Notes under the pieces: model-generated
The model's input: the letters and a program-made list of their open reading frames with translations, nothing else
Told to the model about the DNA's origin: nothing
Database searches by the model: none
Virus record (IMG/VR): IMGVR_UViG_2579778919_000012
DNA from: a virus
Lineage: Duplodnaviria > Heunggongvirae > Uroviricota > Caudoviricetes
Direction: 5' to 3' (one strand)
DNA length: 8,472 nucleotides
Shown: piece by piece, positions 1-8,472 of the stretch
Position numbering within the stretch: position 1 is the first letter of the stretch
Layout of the letters: each line of letters starts with the position of its first letter
Made by a program: the position numbers and the translations under genes

Positions 1-648
1 TTACTTCCATCCACACGCTTTTTGAAGTGGCTTCAATGCCTCTGACAGACCAGCAACATCAAATGTCGCACTCACGGGACTTTCATTGTAAGGCGTGATC
101 TGAGTAAACATTGAGTTAGCCTGGCTCAGCGCCTTGACGAACTCGATGACATTGCCACGATAAAATACCGATTTGGTATCGCTAGATATGTCCCATGTTT
201 TCGTTTTTGCCTTCTGTTTATCCAAGCGAGATAACATCTGTGTTTCGTTCAACCCAAGATAGGTATCCCAATTGAGGAAAAGTTCTGTTTTTTTCTCGCG
301 GCAAGTGATGTAAAGACTTGGTGTGATCGATTCCCCAAACTGCGACCGGAAAGAATCATTAGCAGAAAGGCTAACATAAACATTCTCTGAATCATCCACG
401 GGTGAAGTTTTCGTGGATACCTGCCATTTTCCAACACCTACTACTGGCTTAGCCTCTTCGGCTACTTTCGGTGGAAGAACCTTATCGTAACAAGCTAAAC
501 GCGCATCACTTTTTGCCTCGGATTGGCATTTCATTAATGCGTCATTGTTAATATCGGCTTTAACTGGTTCTACCGCATACGCTGTTGATACAGCAGAAGA
601 GCAAAGCGCCATAGCAATGATTATCTTTTTCATACCATTACCTTTCAT
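1..648 (-). CDS. Hypothetical secreted/periplasmic protein (cleavable Sec signal peptide, cysteine-containing mature domain); family not recognised
   Basis: 215-aa ORF. N-terminus MKGNGMKKIIIAMALCSSAVSTAYA-VEP has a hydrophobic core and an AYA cleavage motif; no canonical lipobox. The true start may be the internal ATG at 633 (MKKIII...), which is preceded by AAGG about 7 nt upstream. The annotated ATG at 648 overlaps the upstream gene's stop as ATGA. GC is roughly 43-46% by eye, against 55-62% in the tail genes. Confidence 0.55.
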   Translation of the reverse strand: MKGNGMKKIIIAMALCSSAVSTAYAVEPVKADINNDALMKCQSEAKSDARLACYDKVLPPKVAEEAKPVVGVGKWQVSTKTSPVDDSENVYVSLSANDSFRSQFGESITPSLYITCREKKTELFLNWDTYLGLNETQMLSRLDKQKAKTKTWDISSDTKSVFYRGNVIEFVKALSQANSMFTQITPYNESPVSATFDVAGLSEALKPLQKACGWK

Positions 649-998
649 GATTTCGGGCGAGTAAAGAAAACAAACATTCCGATAATGATATCGCCAATAA
701 CCCAGATGGTTCCCAGCATCATCATCCCCAGCCCCGTACCAATTGCGGCTCCGGCCCGTTCTGCGTCTGAGGCTGCGTTATTGATAACGTCACTACTGCC
801 GCCAGCCCCGGCAAAAATGCAATAGATCATAAAGATGTTAAACAGGATAAATATCCACTTAACGATCTTGCCAAAAAATGAGCGCTTCGGCTTTCTGACC
901 TGATGGCCGCAAGACGGACATTTAAACGCTGAATCACTAATTTCTTTACTGCATTCCGGGCAGTTTACTAATGCCATTTTCCTAGACTCCATAGACAT
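645..998 (-). CDS. Small membrane protein with N-terminal zinc-ribbon (CPEC-x12-CPSC) and two predicted transmembrane helices; function unknown
   Basis: 117-aa ORF. The CxxC...CxxC motif is followed by a basic stretch (RKPKRSFFGK) and two hydrophobic segments (IVKWIFILFNIFMIYCIFAGAGG and MMMLGTIWVIGDIIIGMFVFFT). An alternative start at 977 (MALVNCPEC...) has a better GGAG/AGGA Shine-Dalgarno. The stop overlaps the downstream ORF start (ATGA), suggesting translational coupling. Confidence 0.55.
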   Translation of the reverse strand: MSMESRKMALVNCPECSKEISDSAFKCPSCGHQVRKPKRSFFGKIVKWIFILFNIFMIYCIFAGAGGSSDVINNAASDAERAGAAIGTGLGMMMLGTIWVIGDIIIGMFVFFTRPKS

Positions 999-1040: not shown

Positions 1041-1075
1041 AATAAATAAAAATTAACCCGCCATATAGGCGGGTT
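1041..1075 (-). terminator. Rho-independent terminator downstream of ogr (possibly bidirectional)
   Basis: An 8-bp GC-rich stem (1055-1062 aacccgcc pairing with 1068-1075 ggcgggtt) with a 5-nt loop. On the - strand it is followed by the T-rich tract AATTTTTATTTATT (1054..1041). It lies 3 nt after the ogr stop codon. On the + strand the same hairpin is followed by ATTTT. Confidence 0.6.
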
Positions 1076-1078
1076 ATT

Positions 1079-1321
1079 TTAGAGTGCCAGCGATAACTGA
1101 TCTTCGCCGTGGTGACTTCGTGGAAAAGCTTCTTGTGGCACCATCGCGCCGGGCGCTGGCTGGGTCTGGTTTAGTGAACCGTCTATTTCCGTCATGCTGG
1201 TGAAACAGTACCCGCACAACATATTTTGACACTGGTGATAGCTGCGTCGTACAAGCAAACTCAGCTCAACGCTGGTTCTGGTTTTTGCTATTGCACGGCA
1301 GCGAGGACAGCGCATTGCCAT
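1079..1321 (-). CDS. ogr: Ogr/Delta-family zinc-finger late transcription activator
   Basis: 80-aa ORF with Cys spacing C5-x2-C8-x22-C31-x4-C36 and the motif YHQCQN-x2-C, matching the P2 Ogr zinc finger as I recall it. Strong RBS AAGGAGG 8 nt upstream of the ATG. Sits immediately downstream of gene D, as in P2. Confidence 0.88.
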   Translation of the reverse strand: MAMRCPRCRAIAKTRTSVELSLLVRRSYHQCQNMLCGYCFTSMTEIDGSLNQTQPAPGAMVPQEAFPRSHHGEDQLSLAL

Positions 1322-1369
1322 ACGCGGGCCTCCTTTCAGGACTGGTTAATATCAACGCAAGTATAACGC

Positions 1370-2488
1370 TTAAGACGTTGAATCGTCACTCTCCGCTGTC
1401 CAGTCGTCGATTTTTACTTCCAGTTCCAGCGACGTGGTAAACCCTCCCCCGCCAATATCGTGAACGCACCGCGTTATCGTCCAGTTCCCACTGTCGATCG
1501 TGGACTTAAAGCCGTAGACGCTGGCGGGCTGTTCCGGGTACAAATCTGCGCGGCCACGCGCCAGGGTGATGCTGAACGTAGCCGCACCGCGCTGCAACTC
1601 CCGCCACTTAGCCGCAGCGGCACGCTTCGCCGCCTTTTCCGTCTTGAAGGTTTTACGTATAACAAAAACGTTACCTTCGGCCCCGGCCAGATAATCACCC
1701 TCTTTTTTGCTGGATGCAGGCTCTTTCTTTTTGGCCTGGCTGGTTCGTCGCCTGCGGGTTGTTTTCTTCACGGTAGTGGATGGTTTCTTGCCAAAGTTGA
1801 GATCAAGCCAGTATGCAGTTACGCCCGTGTACGCGTCGCGGTCAGCTACGTTAAAGCTATGTTTATCACCGCTTGACCGGACTATCTCGATCACCGGCAG
1901 CGGCTTGCCGCTCTGCGTCACTCCTTTGCCCGGCGTGATAAACAGAAGCATACCGTTTTTAATGGTTGCCACCGCGCCCAGCATTTCGGCCATGCGCGTT
2001 AAGAAGCTGATATCTGATTCACTCGTCTGATCGGCGTGGTCTATCTCAATCTTCGCCAGTTCTTCGCTGACACCCGCACGCAGATCGTAGCGACTGGCAA
2101 TGCTGGCGACCACATCCCCCACGGTAATATCGTGCCAGCTATATTCCCTTTTCACGTTGAAGGTATCGCGGAAATCTGCGCTTCTGGCACTGATCGTTAG
2201 CTGGTCAGGCGGGCCTGAATGACCTATCTCATCAACCGTATACACGCCCTTAAAAACCAATGGATCATTATCCCAGCCCAGCGCCACCGATATCTTTGCG
2301 CCGCGTGGTGGTAATGCTACCTGCCCGTCTGCATCATCCAGAGTCAGATCCAGCGTGTCCGCTTCAAATCCCCGGTTATCTGTCAGGGAAAGAGAGATCA
2401 ACCGGTTATCCAGCGCCGTAAGCTGATTACCTTCAATTTCAATACTGAACGCCGGGCGCGGCGAATATCGGTTTTCTGTCGTGTCCAT
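1370..2488 (-). CDS. D: Late control gene D protein (P2 gpD family; baseplate hub, VgrG/gp27-like)
   Basis: 372-aa ORF, close to the ~387 aa of P2 gpD, lying directly upstream of ogr on the same strand. RBS GAAGGGG 5 nt before the ATG. Contains an internal Lys/Arg-rich linker. Family call is from recalled similarity and synteny, not a search. Confidence 0.8.
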   Translation of the reverse strand: MDTTENRYSPRPAFSIEIEGNQLTALDNRLISLSLTDNRGFEADTLDLTLDDADGQVALPPRGAKISVALGWDNDPLVFKGVYTVDEIGHSGPPDQLTISARSADFRDTFNVKREYSWHDITVGDVVASIASRYDLRAGVSEELAKIEIDHADQTSESDISFLTRMAEMLGAVATIKNGMLLFITPGKGVTQSGKPLPVIEIVRSSGDKHSFNVADRDAYTGVTAYWLDLNFGKKPSTTVKKTTRRRRTSQAKKKEPASSKKEGDYLAGAEGNVFVIRKTFKTEKAAKRAAAAKWRELQRGAATFSITLARGRADLYPEQPASVYGFKSTIDSGNWTITRCVHDIGGGGFTTSLELEVKIDDWTAESDDSTS

Positions 2489-2554
2489 ATCAACCCCTTC
2501 ATCATGATGGGGTACATCGTCGCCACGCGCGCGCGCATGAACAACGCCCCGTCA

Positions 2555-2574
2555 TTGTTGCAGGTTGCTGACAA
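2555..2574. promoter_or_regulatory. Ogr-type late promoter activator site (TGT-N12-ACA dyad) in the divergent D/FI intergenic region
   Basis: Exact TTGT-N12-ACAA inverted repeat (tgt 2556-2558, aca 2571-2573), centred at 2564.5. That is about 81 bp upstream of the FI ATG and about 76 bp upstream of the D ATG. P2/P4 late promoters carry TGT-N12-ACA centred near -55. A weak -10-like GATATT lies at 2611-2616 for the + strand. Confidence 0.6.
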
Positions 2575-2645
2575 CCCTTATTCATCGCATCAGCCTGCCA
2601 TTGCCGCAATGATATTCGCAGTCATTAAACTGGCGAGGCAAATAC

Positions 2646-3839
2646 ATGGCCACTAACTACCATCACGGTGTAACCGTCACGGAAACCACCGACCTTAGCA
2701 CGATGATCACCGACATTGATTCGGCGGTGATCGGCGTTGTCTGCACCGCTGATGATGCGGACGAAACAGCGTTCCCGCTGGATACCCCTGTACTGATCAC
2801 CCGCGTGGCTAACATGCTGGGCAAGGCAGGTAAAACCGGCACCCTGTTTACCACCTTGAAAGCGATTTCAGACCAGACCAGCCCGCAAACCATTGTGATC
2901 CGCGTTGCTGATGCTGCAAATATCGAACCGCCAGAAGGCGGCACCGCACAGACACAGGATCAACTGGTTATTGGCGGCACCGATGCAAACGGACGCTTTA
3001 CCGGCATGTACGCGCTGCTGTCTGCCGAAATGCGCGTAGGCGTGCGCCCGCGTGTGCTGGCTGTTCCCGGTCTTGATACGGAAGCGGTGGCCGCACAACT
3101 CGGCGTCATTGCCGAAAAGCTGCGCGCGTTTGCTTACGTGGCAGCGAACGGCTGCAACAGCATCGCCGAAGTGAAGGAATACCGCGAACAGTTCTCCCAG
3201 CGTGAAATGATGGTTATCTGGCCTAATTTCATCTGCTACGACACCAACGCCGGAGCGAATGCCACCGTGCCCGTGGGTGCCCATGCGGTTGGGATGCGCG
3301 CCAAAATCGACGCAACGCAGGGCTGGCATAAAACCATTTCCAACGTGCCCGTTAATAACGTGCTGGGGATGGATCGGGATATCTATTTCACGTTGCAGGG
3401 CACCGATACCGACGCCGACGAACTGAACGCAGCAGGCGTTACCACGCTGATCAAGCAGGACGGCTACCGCATCTGGGGATCGCGTACCTGCGACGCGGAA
3501 ACGTATATCTTCGAAAGCTATACCCGAACCGCGCAGATCGTTGCGGATACCGTCGCCGAAGCACATTTCGCCTATGTTGATAAACCGCTTACCCCGTCGC
3601 TGGTAAAGGACATTGTGGACGGCATCAATAAGAAGCTGACCTCATATGTGACGGCTGGCAAGCTGCTGGGCGCCCGCTGCTGGTATGACCCGGAACCGAA
3701 TACCTCGGAAACCCTGCGCAATGGTCAACTGACCATTAAGTACAACTACACCCCTGTTCCACCGCTGGAAAATCTCAGCCTGGTACAGGAGTTCACCGAC
3801 GAATATTTCGCTACGTTTTCCAGCGCAGTGAATAACTAA
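2646..3839 (+). CDS. FI: Contractile tail sheath protein (P2 gpFI family)
   Basis: 397-aa ORF (P2 FI is ~396 aa). N-terminus MATNYHHGVTV resembles P2 FI (MSDYHHGVQV) as recalled, with conserved-looking blocks such as LRAFAY, WHKT and YTPVPPLENL. RBS GAGG 7 nt upstream. Followed by the tube gene. Confidence 0.9.
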   Translation: MATNYHHGVTVTETTDLSTMITDIDSAVIGVVCTADDADETAFPLDTPVLITRVANMLGKAGKTGTLFTTLKAISDQTSPQTIVIRVADAANIEPPEGGTAQTQDQLVIGGTDANGRFTGMYALLSAEMRVGVRPRVLAVPGLDTEAVAAQLGVIAEKLRAFAYVAANGCNSIAEVKEYREQFSQREMMVIWPNFICYDTNAGANATVPVGAHAVGMRAKIDATQGWHKTISNVPVNNVLGMDRDIYFTLQGTDTDADELNAAGVTTLIKQDGYRIWGSRTCDAETYIFESYTRTAQIVADTVAEAHFAYVDKPLTPSLVKDIVDGINKKLTSYVTAGKLLGARCWYDPEPNTSETLRNGQLTIKYNYTPVPPLENLSLVQEFTDEYFATFSSAVNN

Positions 3840-3851
3840 CCGGGGGCGCTT

Positions 3852-4367
3852 ATGGCACTGCCTAAGAAACTCAAATATTTCAATATGTTCTTTGACGGGG
3901 ATAACTACTTCGGCATGGTGCCGGAAATCACCCCCGCCAAACTCACCAAAAAAACCGAAGACTACCAAGCGGGCGGTATGCCGGGTTCGGTTGCGGTGGA
4001 TCTGGGCTTCGACGCTGGCGCCCTGGATATGGATATCACGCTGGGCGGCATGGATGCAGGGCTAATGAAAAAATGGGGCGTTACCACTGCGGACGGAATG
4101 CAGGTGCGCTTTGCTGGCTCTTACCAGGACGATGCGACCGGCGACGCCGTACCGTGCGAAATCCAGACGCGTGGCCGCTTCACTGAACTGGATCCCGGTT
4201 CGGCAAAGGTTGGGGATGATACTTCGCATAAGTACACCCTGAAAAACACCTATTACAAGCTGACCATCAATAGCGAAGAAATTATCGAAATTGATGTGCT
4301 CAACATGATCTACAAAGTTGCCGGTGTGGATGTGCTGGAAAAACACCGCGCTAACATCGGCTTATAA
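3852..4367 (+). CDS. FII: Tail tube protein (P2 gpFII family)
   Basis: 171-aa ORF (P2 FII is ~172 aa). Begins MALPKKLK and ends HRANIGL, resembling P2 FII as recalled. Sits immediately after the sheath gene, separated by 12 bp. Confidence 0.88.
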   Translation: MALPKKLKYFNMFFDGDNYFGMVPEITPAKLTKKTEDYQAGGMPGSVAVDLGFDAGALDMDITLGGMDAGLMKKWGVTTADGMQVRFAGSYQDDATGDAVPCEIQTRGRFTELDPGSAKVGDDTSHKYTLKNTYYKLTINSEEIIEIDVLNMIYKVAGVDVLEKHRANIGL

Positions 4368-4381
4368 GGAAACCCGGCACC

Positions 4382-4717
4382 ATGAGCAAGACCAAAGAAA
4401 ACACCGTTATTCTTACCGCCCCTATTACGCGCGGTAAGACCAAAATCACCGAAGTGGCGATCACTTCCGTGCTTAAACAGGCTGGATCACTGCGCGGCTT
4501 AAAAGCCTATGACGTGCTGACGTCCAACTATGACGCGCTGGTTATTCTGCTGCCCCGCGTTACCGCTCCGGCATTAACCGCCGATGAGATTGCCCGAATG
4601 GATACCTGGGATTTTTGCCAGTTAGCCAACGCGGTGGTTGATTTTTTGCAACCCTCTTCGGATCTGACCGCGACGGATACGGGCAACGAATCATCCGATG
4701 CCCCTGCGAACGCATAG
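4382..4717 (+). CDS. E: Tail assembly chaperone gpE (zero-frame product)
   Basis: 111-aa ORF between the tube and tape measure genes. RBS AAGGAAAC upstream. Contains the slippery heptamer T_TTT_TTG at 4642-4648 in the frame expected for a -1 shift. Confidence 0.8.
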   Translation: MSKTKENTVILTAPITRGKTKITEVAITSVLKQAGSLRGLKAYDVLTSNYDALVILLPRVTAPALTADEIARMDTWDFCQLANAVVDFLQPSSDLTATDTGNESSDAPANA

Positions 4718-4842
4718 AAGACCTGATGGCAGATATCGCCGTCATATTCCACTGGCGGCCGGTAGAGATGGACGCCATGACGGTACAGGAAATACTGTTA
4801 TGGCGTGATCAGGCGGCTGCGCGCAGTGGTGGAGATCACTAA
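4382..4842 (+). CDS. E': Tail assembly chaperone gpE+E' (-1 frameshift fusion product, about 153 aa)
   Basis: E residues 1-89 followed by 64 codons in the -1 frame (ATLFGSDRDGYGQRIIRCPCERIEDLMADIAVIFHWRPVEMDAMTVQEILLWRDQAAARSGGDH). I translated this by hand and found no stop. The fusion stop TAA (4840-4842) abuts the T start codon at 4843. Confidence 0.6.
4642..4648 (+). other. Programmed -1 ribosomal frameshift slippery site (TTTTTTG) for gpE to gpE+E'
   Basis: The heptamer T TTT TTG is in the X_XXY_YYZ register of the E frame (codons TTT 4643-4645, TTG 4646-4648). The -1 frame is open from 4648 to a TAA at 4840-4842. The same heptamer is used in P2 E/E'. Confidence 0.65.
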
Positions 4843-7800
4843 ATGGCAGACCGCAATTTAAATATCAGGGTGGCATTCAGCGCCCTGAATAATATGTCCC
4901 GCCCTGTCAACGCGGCGCGCCAGAGTGCCGCCGCGTTGGCGTCTCAAATCAATCAGACCAAAACCAGCATTAAAGGGCTTGAGCGTCAGGCAACCAGCTT
5001 TGACCGCCTCACCGCAGCCAATAAAAAAACCACCGAACAACTGGCCCAGGCGAAAGAACAGGCCCGGCAAATGGCGGCGGCTTATGGCCCGTTACGCCAG
5101 CGCAGCGCCGAACAGGTTGCCGCCCTCAATCAGCAACGTGCAGCCATTCGCCAGTTAACCCAGCAGCAGAAAGGCGAGCAGACGCAGCTTAACCAGTTGC
5201 GCGCCAGCTTCTACAGCGAAGGCATTGCGATCAGCAGCGCCAGCCGGGCGACGGAACAGATCAACCAGCGCACCGCGCAATACAACCGCCAGCTTGCCGA
5301 ACAGCAGCGACGGCTTGACGCTGTTAACCAGGCGCAGGCCCGTTACAGCCGCGCCAAAGAAACCGGCGAAAAGATGATGAGCGGGGGGATGAAAACCGCC
5401 GCAGTAGGGGCGGCAACCCTCGCACCTGTCGCCGCTGCGGTTAAATCATACAGCAGCCTTGAAGACGCCATGAAAGGCGTAGCCAAACAGGTAAACGGCT
5501 TGCGTGACGACAGCGGCAACCGCACCCCGCAGTATGAAGAAATGCAGCGGGCGATCATGGATGCCAGCGAAAAGCTACCAATGGCTAACGGCGCTGTTGA
5601 CTATGCCGCCCTGGTCGAAGGTGGCGCGCGCATGGGCGTGGCAAACAGCGATGATCCGTGGGAAAAACAAAAAGCCGATCTGCTGGCTTTCGCCAGCATG
5701 GCGGCAAAAGCTTCGGTAGCCTTTGAACTGCCCGCCGATCAGCTTTCTGAAAGCCTCGGTAAGATTGCCGGGCTGTATAAAATCCCTACCCAGAATATTG
5801 AACAGTTAGGCGACGCCATAAACTACCTGGACGATAACGCGAAGTCGAAAGGCTCCGATATTATCGACGTGCTCCAGCGCGTTGGCGGACTTGCCAGCCA
5901 ACTGGATTACAAGCAAGCCGCCGCGCTGGGTTCCACCTTCCTGACGCTTGGATCACCTGCCGAAGTTGCCGCCAGCGCAACCAATGCAATGGTGCGCGAA
6001 CTATCGATCGCCACAGTACAAAGCGATAAATTTTTGGGTGCGCTGGATGAAATCGGCATCAATGCTGAAAAAGTCCAGAAAAGCATGTCAGTGGACGCGA
6101 TGGGCACGATCATTTCAGTGCTGGAAGCGTCCAAAAAACTTGCACCAGATAAGCAGGTAGCCAACCTTACTCAGATTTTCGGTAAAGAGTTCGGCGATGA
6201 TGCGCAGAAACTTGCGAACAACCTGCCCGAACTACGCCGCCAGATAGAACTGACGCAGGGCGCAGCCGCTAAAGGTTCCATGAATCGGGAATCTGATATC
6301 AATAAAGCGTCCCTTTCAGCTCAGTGGCAACTGACCAAAACCGGCGCGGTTAACGCATTGAGTTCAGCAGGGGAAACGCTCCGCGAACCGCTGATGGATA
6401 TCATGCTTACCGTCAGTAAGGTGGTTGGCAGCGTCCGCCGCTGTGTTGAGGCAAACCCGGCTCTGGTTGGCTCAATCATGAAAGTCACCGCAGCCATAGG
6501 CGCGTTGCTGGTTGTCGTGGGTGGCCTGATGCTGACCATCGGCGCAGTGCTCGGCCCGATGGCACTTGTTCGCCTCAGCTTCACCACGCTGGCTGGCTCC
6601 GGTGGGGTAACTCCCCTCATAGGCTCGCTGGGAAAATTATCCAGCACATTACGCGGGCTGATCCCCTCACTATCTGGCGTGGGCCGAAGTATTAAAGACT
6701 GGCCTGCCCTCTTCCGATCTGCTGCGTCTGGCATTACCCAATTTAGTAAACAAGCTATTGGCGGGTTAAACACAGCGTTAATGGCACTTTCACGCGGTGC
6801 TGTTGCTGCCGGACAGGGGCTATTTACCCTATTCACAAGGCCTATGACGGCTATAACCTGGCTTGGTAATGGCCTCAGAACTCTGGCGACCTCCGGTTTC
6901 GGCGCTTTGCTGAACGTTGGACGCACCGTAATGATGGCGTTGGGTGGCGGGTTATCATTACTTCTTAGCCCTATTGGAATACTGGTAATCGCTTTATCAG
7001 CAGCAGCGATCGCCGTTATTAAATTCTGGGAACCTATAAAAGCCTTTTTCACTGGCTTTTACACCGGGTTAATGAGTGGCTTACAGCCTTTAACCTCAGC
7101 ATTTAGTACAGCCTTTGCACCACTAGCCCCACTCTTTGACTCTATCGGTAATGCTGTCGGTGGCGTCTGGGAGTGGTTCACAAAACTATTCGAACCTATC
7201 CAGTTCTCCAGCGAAGCGCTAGCCTCCTGCACCAGTGCCGGGGAAACGTTCGGTAAGGTTGTAGGTAACGCTCTATCTGCATTAACACCAATAATCGAAG
7301 GAATAGCGCGCGGTATAGGATGGGTACTGGAAAAACTCGGCGCCATCCCCGACGCAACAAAAGCAGCGCAGCAAGCTGCGGAAAGTATGCACAAAGACCC
7401 TGTTGTCTGGGAGTGGGATCCGCAGCAAAAGAAAATGGTTAAAAAGGGTTGGAACTGGTCGCCGAAAGACGATCAGCAGAAGAAAACCAACCAGAAGCAA
7501 CAGCAGGCCATTGACCAGCAGAAAAAGCAGGAAAGCTTAATTAACTCGCTCAAGGGCCCGGCCAACATCGTGCCGAAGATGAGCAGCAGCCTGGATAAGA
7601 TCGCCACCAATACCACGGAGAAGAAAGACGGCCCCGGCGAAATTGTCTTCAAGAATAAGCAGCCCTATATCCCGATCCGTGGTGGATATTCGGAACCGCT
7701 TAAGCAGGTGCAGCGCCAACTACCATCCCTTACCGATTGGGTGACGCAGCAGGCCGGATCGCTGATCGCTTCCGTTACGCCTTGGCAGGTTGAGAAGCCC

Positions 7801-8013
7801 GCCGCACGGATGCCTGTTTCGGCGTCTCCGTCTGCGGCTTCCGTCGCTGCGCTGATGCCTGCTCCGGGTGGCGATGTATATAACCTTAACTTCGACTTTA
7901 GCGGCCAGAAACTGGATGAAGAAACCATTATCAGGCGCGTGCGCGAAGAACTTGCGTTAGCGAAGCAACAGGCCGACCGGCGCAAGCGCTCCCAACTGAC
8001 CGATCACGTCTAA
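4843..8013 (+). CDS. T: Tail tape measure protein (P2 gpT family)
   Basis: 1056-aa ORF in the canonical position after E/E'. It has a Gln/Ala-rich N-terminal coiled-coil-like region, a central Gly/Ala/Leu-rich hydrophobic segment and a Lys/Gln-rich C-terminal stretch, all typical of tape measure proteins. It is longer than P2 gpT (~815 aa). Confidence 0.9.
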   Translation: MADRNLNIRVAFSALNNMSRPVNAARQSAAALASQINQTKTSIKGLERQATSFDRLTAANKKTTEQLAQAKEQARQMAAAYGPLRQRSAEQVAALNQQRAAIRQLTQQQKGEQTQLNQLRASFYSEGIAISSASRATEQINQRTAQYNRQLAEQQRRLDAVNQAQARYSRAKETGEKMMSGGMKTAAVGAATLAPVAAAVKSYSSLEDAMKGVAKQVNGLRDDSGNRTPQYEEMQRAIMDASEKLPMANGAVDYAALVEGGARMGVANSDDPWEKQKADLLAFASMAAKASVAFELPADQLSESLGKIAGLYKIPTQNIEQLGDAINYLDDNAKSKGSDIIDVLQRVGGLASQLDYKQAAALGSTFLTLGSPAEVAASATNAMVRELSIATVQSDKFLGALDEIGINAEKVQKSMSVDAMGTIISVLEASKKLAPDKQVANLTQIFGKEFGDDAQKLANNLPELRRQIELTQGAAAKGSMNRESDINKASLSAQWQLTKTGAVNALSSAGETLREPLMDIMLTVSKVVGSVRRCVEANPALVGSIMKVTAAIGALLVVVGGLMLTIGAVLGPMALVRLSFTTLAGSGGVTPLIGSLGKLSSTLRGLIPSLSGVGRSIKDWPALFRSAASGITQFSKQAIGGLNTALMALSRGAVAAGQGLFTLFTRPMTAITWLGNGLRTLATSGFGALLNVGRTVMMALGGGLSLLLSPIGILVIALSAAAIAVIKFWEPIKAFFTGFYTGLMSGLQPLTSAFSTAFAPLAPLFDSIGNAVGGVWEWFTKLFEPIQFSSEALASCTSAGETFGKVVGNALSALTPIIEGIARGIGWVLEKLGAIPDATKAAQQAAESMHKDPVVWEWDPQQKKMVKKGWNWSPKDDQQKKTNQKQQQAIDQQKKQESLINSLKGPANIVPKMSSSLDKIATNTTEKKDGPGEIVFKNKQPYIPIRGGYSEPLKQVQRQLPSLTDWVTQQAGSLIASVTPWQVEKPAARMPVSASPSAASVAALMPAPGGDVYNLNFDFSGQKLDEETIIRRVREELALAKQQADRRKRSQLTDHV

Positions 8014-8022
8014 GGCAATATC

Positions 8023-8472
8023 ATGATGATGATTCTGGGGATGTTCCCCTTTTCACTGCAAACCACACCTTACCAGAGTGCGAATAAAACCAACTCCTGG
8101 CGGCACGTCAAAAACGATCGCGTGGGGAAATCCCCGCGCTATCAGTTCATCGGCGCAGATGAAGAACCGTTCGTACTCAGCGGCACGCTGTACCCCGAAA
8201 TAAGCGGCGGTGATGTGTCGCTTGTCATGCTGGAAACTATGGCTTTTTCCGGGCGCCCGTGGCCCCTGATAGAAGGCACGGGCAGGATCTACGGCATGTA
8301 TGTAATTGAGCAGATCACGCAAAACCGGACGGAGTTTTTTAAGGACGGGAAGGCAAAGAAAATTGATTTCACGCTCAACCTGAAACGGGTAAGCGAGGAC
8401 ATACGGGAAAAGCTGGCTGAAACCACTACCGACGATCTCTTCTCTCTGGTGAAAACCAACCTTTCGATATAA
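8023..8472 (+). CDS. U: Tail protein gpU (P2 GpU family)
   Basis: 149-aa ORF directly after T (P2 gpU is ~159 aa). N-terminus MMMILGMFPF and the blocks RPWPLIEGTGRIYGMYVI and RTEFFKDG resemble P2 gpU as recalled. The stop codon is the last triplet of the window. Confidence 0.85.
   Translation: MMMILGMFPFSLQTTPYQSANKTNSWRHVKNDRVGKSPRYQFIGADEEPFVLSGTLYPEISGGDVSLVMLETMAFSGRPWPLIEGTGRIYGMYVIEQITQNRTEFFKDGKAKKIDFTLNLKRVSEDIREKLAETTTDDLFSLVKTNLSI

Follow-up and report, generated by a model that had tools for sequence, protein, structure and literature searches.

The 8,472-nt stretch of DNA analysed here (the window) carries a set of phage tail genes, all of which are intact. Based on Pfam matches, their order is sheath (2646..3839), tube (FII; 3852..4367, plus strand; PF04985 Phage_tube, E = 4e-61), E, tape measure (T; 4843..8013, plus strand, ATG 4843-4845; PF10145 PhageMin_Tail, E = 1.8e-21) and, after T, gpU (from 8023). 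The tail assembly chaperone gene E (4382..4717, plus strand) lies immediately 3′ of FII, between the tube and tape-measure genes, as does the E/E′ pair of P2. Genes for an Ogr/Delta zinc finger protein (1079..1321) and for gpD (1370..2488), also recognized by Pfam, occupy the strand opposite to E.

The window was compared with known phages and prophages. Positions 1055-8472 were 93.7% identical to Salmonella phages SEN4/SEN5. Identity to these phages rose to 98.7% in the E/E′ region, with 99% for E and 100% for the E′ peptide. The whole window was 97.9% identical to a prophage adjoining fieF in E. coli O19:H7 730V1, whose P2-like gene complement is complete and covers the head, lysis, baseplate, fibre, tail and replication functions. 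Judged by these identities, the source is a P2-like prophage of Senquatrovirus (SEN4/5-type), in the Peduoviridae. SEN4/5 form plaques and have a contractile tail (PMC5261728). The initial annotation had favoured a functional tail module over a decayed remnant, a view supported indirectly by the intact tail genes, the gene set of the 730V1 prophage and the viability of SEN4/5. The T protein has 1056 residues in the window and in E. coli 730V1 versus 975 in SEN5. A search for tandem repeats behind the 81 extra residues found none, and a longer tail would be expected from the longer T.

The FI-FII-E-T-U block runs opposite to D and ogr, with D divergent from FI, an arrangement common to SEN4/5. 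Because this block is on the strand opposite to D, D falls outside the operon both here and in SEN4/5, whereas in P2 it follows U within the FETUD operon. The divergence of D from FI also implies that D needs a late promoter of its own. The sole TGT-N12-ACA dyad in the window, TGTTGCAGGTTGCTGACA (2556-2573), is in the middle of the 157 bp that separate D and FI, approximately 77 nt from the ATG of D and 82 nt from that of FI. A related E. coli prophage (L073) has dyads of the same spacing at 34557 and 40895, in the intergenic regions equivalent to those of PV and PO/PP. Going by the late promoters of P2, we take the dyad at 2556..2573 to be a candidate Ogr-dependent late promoter element of the FI-FII-E-T-U operon. 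The divergent promoters of D and FI may share a single palindromic Ogr site.

At the prophage end, the minus strand carries a TagO/VasI-like gene associated with type VI secretion (1..648; PF11319, 2.7e-13) beside a zinc-ribbon gene (645..998). These two genes (window 1-998) adjoin host fieF in E. coli 730V1, are missing from SEN4/5, and look like a cargo (moron) pair. Homologues of the zinc-ribbon region (window 660-977) were found in P2-like 500465-2, PhiR44_2 and Citrobacter Shae_phiSM; in the last of these, the feature beneath the match is annotated tagO.

Read in the zero frame, E encodes a protein of 111 residues, from ATG 4382 to TAG 4715-4717. A slippery heptamer, T_TTT_TTG, lies within it at 4642..4648 on the plus strand. 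The zero-frame codons at this site are GAT TTT TTG, which place the heptamer in the X_XXY_YYZ register, as the initial annotation had stated. The -1 frame is closed upstream by TGA 4639-4641 and is open from 4642, the first base of the heptamer. Reading in this frame from 4648, such that G4648 is used twice, yields the E′ extension (4648..4842, plus strand), a run of 64 sense codons (ATLFGSDR...SGGDH; ATLFGSDRDGYGQRIIRCPCERIEDLMADIAVIFHWRPVEMDAMTVQEILLWRDQAAARSGGDH) that ends at TAA 4840-4842. The earlier translation had been made by hand and might have passed over a stop; on checking, it contained none. The 89 residues of E up to the site and the 64 residues of the extension make an E+E′ fusion of 153 residues. 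The expected masses are about 12 kDa for E and about 17 kDa for the fusion. The conceptual tryptic peptide spanning its junction is MDTWDFCQLANAVVDFLATLFGSDR, and that marking E is MDTWDFCQLANAVVDFLQPSSDLTATDTGNESSDAPANA. The stop codon of E′ directly abuts ATG 4843 of T (TAAATG, a 0-nt spacer), again as first described.

The heptamer and the open frame might be coincidental or vestigial, with E as the sole product, and we evaluated this using the sequence of the window. In-register X_XXY_YYZ heptamers occurred seven times in 2677 gene codons of the window, and E has just TTTTTTG. In the window's genes, the -1 frame remained open for at least 64 codons after only 4.2% of codon positions, and it stayed open in 7.3% of mononucleotide shuffles of 4648-4842. 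Thus, the open frame by itself has a chance of about 4-7%, which leaves some room for coincidence. The combination of heptamer and open frame has a chance of roughly 1e-3 to 1e-2 on the sequence alone and is unlikely to have arisen in this way.

The -1 peptide was identified by its protein-family matches, which also argue against coincidence. E′ matched PF06528 Phage_P2_GpE with E = 4.8e-16 and 58.4 bits (cut-off, 23 bits), over fusion residues 116-150, wholly within the -1 part. In PHROGs, the extension corresponded to phrog_1756 at 1.2e-20 and likewise to phrog_6416 at ~1e-20. Using tblastn, the -1 peptide was found to be encoded in 392 phage records, a number that is difficult to reconcile with a chance reading frame. 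In matches to P2, the extension was 50% identical (3e-8) and E was 43% identical. These matches show the -1 extension to be a genuine E′ domain of the P2 type. For the zero-frame part, E corresponded to phrog_103 'tail protein' at 2.8e-34. The fusion weakly matched PF10109 'Phage tail assembly chaperone E/41/14' over residues 8-89, and E alone scored 23.1 bits against PF10109 (Phage_TAC_7), slightly under the gathering cut-off of 25 bits. Searching NCBIfam with E and with the fusion returned no match. Since the PF10109 score is below its cut-off and NCBIfam was empty, the assignment of E to its family rests on PHROG, tblastn and alignment. A sequence search of the PDB with the fusion profile yielded nothing at E ≤ 1, and hence no solved structure.

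The fusion was aligned with those of P2, phiCTX, Milagro, one Xuanwuvirus and three IMG/VR relatives. Homology extends over both halves, and the slip site follows the same conserved ..FL in each. There were 23 invariant columns, with P14, R17, G35, L37, R38 and G39 among those in the E part. The fusion is 41% identical to that of P2, in which TTTTTTG falls at the homologous residue (..FL|) and has the same register. The P2 GenBank record, AF063097, lists gpE with 91 residues and a gpE+E′ that shares its N terminus and is noted as '-1 frameshift; essential tail protein'; the shift marked there falls inside TTTTTTG, the same heptamer as in the window. What is described for P2 in PMC3091744, which like PMC3931495 draws on Christie et al. 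2002 (J Bacteriol 184:6522), is a TTTTTTG frameshift that yields E (91 aa) and E+E′ (142 aa), both of which are made and are essential to tail assembly, the latter being consistent with the GenBank note. The same source's account of P2-like phages has no hairpin 3′ of the slip site. The locus further resembles that of P2 in having E between FII and T, in lacking a downstream structure and in having E′ end at the start of T. Nevertheless, E has 111 residues here versus 91 in P2 and the extension has 64 codons versus 57, while the -1-frame linker leading from the shift site to the conserved MADxAVIFHW core is longer here by approximately 10 residues. SEN4/SEN5 (NC_028701) are closer still, with an identical E′ peptide and with both the heptamer and the TAAATG junction of the window.

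We evaluated the conservation of the site using two sets of loci. In a first scan of IMG/VR, which returned about 67-69 loci with 58-100% identity in E, every locus had an in-register TTTTTTG at the same distance from the start of E. The -1 ORF was 64 codons long in all but one of these, in which it was 65. Among 50 unique related sequences, the heptamer and the two bases that follow it were invariant. The heptamer spans three zero-frame third positions; upstream of it, 75 of 80 third positions vary. Two synonymous sites beyond the heptamer, 4633 (the third base of GCG) and A4650 (in GCA), were also invariant in the 50 relatives.

The pattern of variability changed at the heptamer. In the 50 unique sequences, the most variable codon position was zero-frame position 3 before the heptamer and -1-frame position 3 directly after it, and the latter was the most variable in both the overlap (4649-4717) and the region beyond (4718-4839). 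Pairwise Nei-Gojobori estimates of pN/pS followed suit. Upstream of the heptamer, pN/pS in the zero frame was 0.14-0.39. In the -1 frame, it was 0.16-0.75 in the overlap (4648-4716) and 0.12-0.37 in the E′-only part (4717-4839). The zero frame gave 0.92-1.67 in the overlap (4649-4714) and, as a control, 1.25-1.58 in the E′-only part (4718-4837). Because both variability and pN/pS switch frame at the heptamer, translation of the -1 peptide appears to begin at the slip site. The 22 residues of E encoded after the heptamer (4649-4717), with pN/pS of about 1, look essentially unconstrained, and this zero-frame tail seems to be shaped by the overlapping E′ frame alone. In relatives, the length of the E tail varies, giving E proteins of 103-112 residues. 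An invariant site followed by a -1 frame under purifying selection is not what a coincidental or vestigial arrangement predicts and, with the family matches, makes that explanation exceedingly unlikely. At the level of sequence, homology and conservation put the E/E+E′ arrangement beyond doubt.

The same data bear on whether E′ is instead a separate small gene with its own start, at either ATG 4726 (38 aa, as in SEN5) or ATG 4768 (24 aa, as called by PGAP). Public annotations treat E′ as a separate CDS in this manner, and most relatives retain ATG 4726 of the -1 frame (MADIAV...), where they read ..LMADIAV... The constraint on the -1 frame, which is evolutionary rather than protein evidence, nevertheless begins 26 codons upstream of this first -1-frame ATG. 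Specifically, the 26 codons from the heptamer to 4726 are under purifying selection, at a pN/pS of 0.16-0.75, while the zero frame is at about 1. A separate gene would not account for a heptamer unchanged at three synonymous zero-frame sites or for a -1 frame that is open from the heptamer onward in all relatives. Moreover, the Met of ATG 4726 is Val in the Xuanwuvirus clade. The sequence preceding ATG 4726, AGAAGACCTG, has no GGAG core and would be a weak ribosome binding site; what is reported on P2 E′ in PMC3931495 is that it is without one. The PF06528 match begins at the residue of Met 4726, yet that of phrog_1756 takes in residues 7-62 of E′. Based on these data, translation of E′ from its own start is very improbable.

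A second, more diverse scan provided 80 loci with 41-100% identity, which together with four reference phages made a set of 84. The -1 relationship was present in 82 of these, and in 81 a heptamer lay in register at the homologous position. The heptamer was TTTTTTG in 51 of the 84, nine of which had a second in-register heptamer, CCCTTTT or AAATTTT, overlapping it. The remainder had CCCTTTC (15), AAATTTT alone (13) or TTTTTTA (2). Milagro was one of the three uncounted loci owing to a script artefact; its TTTTTTG is present. The variant heptamers come from sister clades within the Peduoviridae (L097-L149 and L004). The occurrence of other heptamers at the homologous place in these clades indicates that the strategy has outlasted several replacements of the slip site. 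Thus, a heptamer with a -1 ORF is conserved down to 58% identity in E and across the Peduoviridae. The other two uncounted loci, both contigs, departed from this pattern. In IMGVR_UViG_2526164662_000048 (L084 1150-1700), E′ has an extra frame break downstream of an AAATTTT-type site, probably because the copy has decayed or was missequenced. In IMGVR_UViG_2565956773_000017 (L081 1437-1443), the site reads CCC-T7-G versus CCC-T6-G in a close relative (L113), and the inserted T joins E and E′ into one frame of 184 codons. This contig contains either a homopolymer sequencing error or a mutation such that only the fusion is made.

Contig L081 illustrates how the fusion might also be produced by transcriptional slippage: if RNA polymerase added one U in the T6 run, E and E′ would share a frame in some of the mRNAs. 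Inserting one base into the T run gives precisely this in-frame fusion, and the slip site is a homopolymer, which suits such a mechanism. However, the runs known to support transcriptional slippage in bacteria comprise about nine or more A or T residues, and T6 is short by this general measure. The CCCTTTC and AAATTTT of the sister clades are poor homopolymers and proper X_XXY_YYZ tandem-slip sites, pointing to re-pairing of tRNAs. Further, the zero-frame register of the site is strictly conserved, and register matters only for slippage by the ribosome. We consider transcriptional slippage highly unlikely on these grounds, and infer that it is the ribosome that slips.

A downstream stimulatory RNA structure, which the initial annotation had suggested might emerge from folding 4649..4720, was not found. 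The minimum free energy of 4649-4720 was -16.4 kcal/mol (z = -0.58) and the z-score of 4649-4790 was -0.18, neither of which is significant. The consensus fold of 10 relatives had an energy of -2.68 kcal/mol and included 0 compensatory pairs, and a search of the whole window against Rfam gave no match. Sites of the structure-stimulated class have a stable, conserved structure 5-9 nt downstream of the heptamer; in the window, the folds provided none. In this respect, the site differs from those of dnaX, IS elements and many viruses, in which the heptamer is combined with a downstream hairpin or pseudoknot. Given that no fold, covariation or Rfam match was obtained, the site looks structure-independent and is probably of low efficiency, as in P2 and lambda; the lambda analogy would predict an efficiency of a few percent.

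We also considered an upstream element. At 4633-4637, about 3-4 nt 5′ of the heptamer, is a Shine-Dalgarno-like GGTGG, to which AAGGTGGT corresponds in P2 with equal spacing. Stimulation of the dnaX type involves a spacing of about 10-14 nt. We set GGTGG aside as a stimulator: its spacing is too short by this general knowledge, and its bases also encode a conserved Val-Val.

The E′/T junction contains a Shine-Dalgarno-like GGAGA (4831..4835, plus strand) located 7 nt before ATG 4843, in the last codons of E′. This sequence presumably serves T, and its GGAG is kept in those relatives that have the TAAATG junction. The abutment is common to the SEN4/5-like clade. Junctions in other relatives include TAAAATG, with a 1-nt spacer, and ATGA, with a 4-nt overlap. 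Annotated E′ and T genes overlap by 8 nt in P2 (ATGAGTAA, as against 0 nt here), by 11 nt in phiCTX and by 14 nt in Xuanwuvirus, and are separated by a 2-nt gap in Milagro. This comparison is based on annotated junctions and raw strings only, as the automated spacing table over-calls upstream starts. The conserved feature is thus the tight packing of E′ and T, not exact abutment. Frameshifted ribosomes could in principle stop on the start of T and re-initiate there, tying part of T synthesis to that of E+E′, although we regard this as unlikely. If it were so, the junctions (-14 to +2 nt) and the differing heptamers would set lineage-specific E : E+E′ : T ratios.

Overall, it is very likely that a programmed -1 ribosomal frameshift produces E and E+E′ and that these act as tape-measure chaperones in the manner of lambda G/GT. 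According to this model, the majority of ribosomes would read E to its TAG and release the 111-residue protein, while a minority would slip back one base at T_TTT_TTG (4642-4648), requiring no stimulatory RNA structure to do so. The P-site tRNA-Phe would re-pair from UUU to UUU and the A-site tRNA-Leu from UUG to UUU. The slipped ribosomes would then read the 64 codons of the -1 frame to produce the 153-residue E+E′, terminating at the TAA that abuts T. By analogy with lambda G/GT, the E part, common to both proteins, would form a coat on the tape measure T, and the E′ domain, the rarer of the two, would bring in subunits of the tube protein FII and so start polymerisation. Both E and E+E′ would be absent from the virion.

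In lambda, the short form is described as coating the tape measure and the extension as binding the major tail protein (Levin et al. 1993 and Xu, Hendrix & Duda 2004, 2013 and 2014, as summarised in PMC5009743). As with gpG/gpGT, the chaperone gene in the window lies between the genes for the major tail (tube) protein and the tape measure, and a strong RNA structure is not required. Homology to lambda G or T was not detected: Pfam at E ≤ 0.01 yielded only PF10109 and PF06528. The heptamer of lambda is G_GGA_AAG, unlike the TTTTTTG of the window, and the lambda tail is non-contractile, whereas that of SEN4/5 is contractile. The resemblance to lambda G/GT is thus one of mechanism and strategy, drawn by analogy, and not of family membership. 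The initial annotation had seen in the locus both the P2 E/E′ and the lambda G/GT strategy; this reading agrees with PF06528, phrog_1756, the P2 alignment, the conserved site and the frame switch.

The frameshift is the textbook E/E+E′ frameshift of P2, and the genome of this lineage has already been published. The sole new point is that the annotations of SEN5 and of the E. coli prophage omit it. In the RefSeq record of SEN5 (L001 6345-6461), E′ is called as an independent 38-residue 'tail protein', as opposed to the frameshift product described here. In the E. coli prophage annotated by PGAP (L073 24768-24842), E′ is a 24-residue 'GpE family phage tail protein' and E is a 'hypothetical protein'. 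Ribosomal slippage is recorded in neither, and the 153-residue E+E′ is missed in both. The practical value of the finding is accordingly one of annotation, and it teaches nothing new about how frameshifting or tail assembly works. For the prophage itself, the intact slip site is a useful marker, indicating that the tail module is probably still functional.
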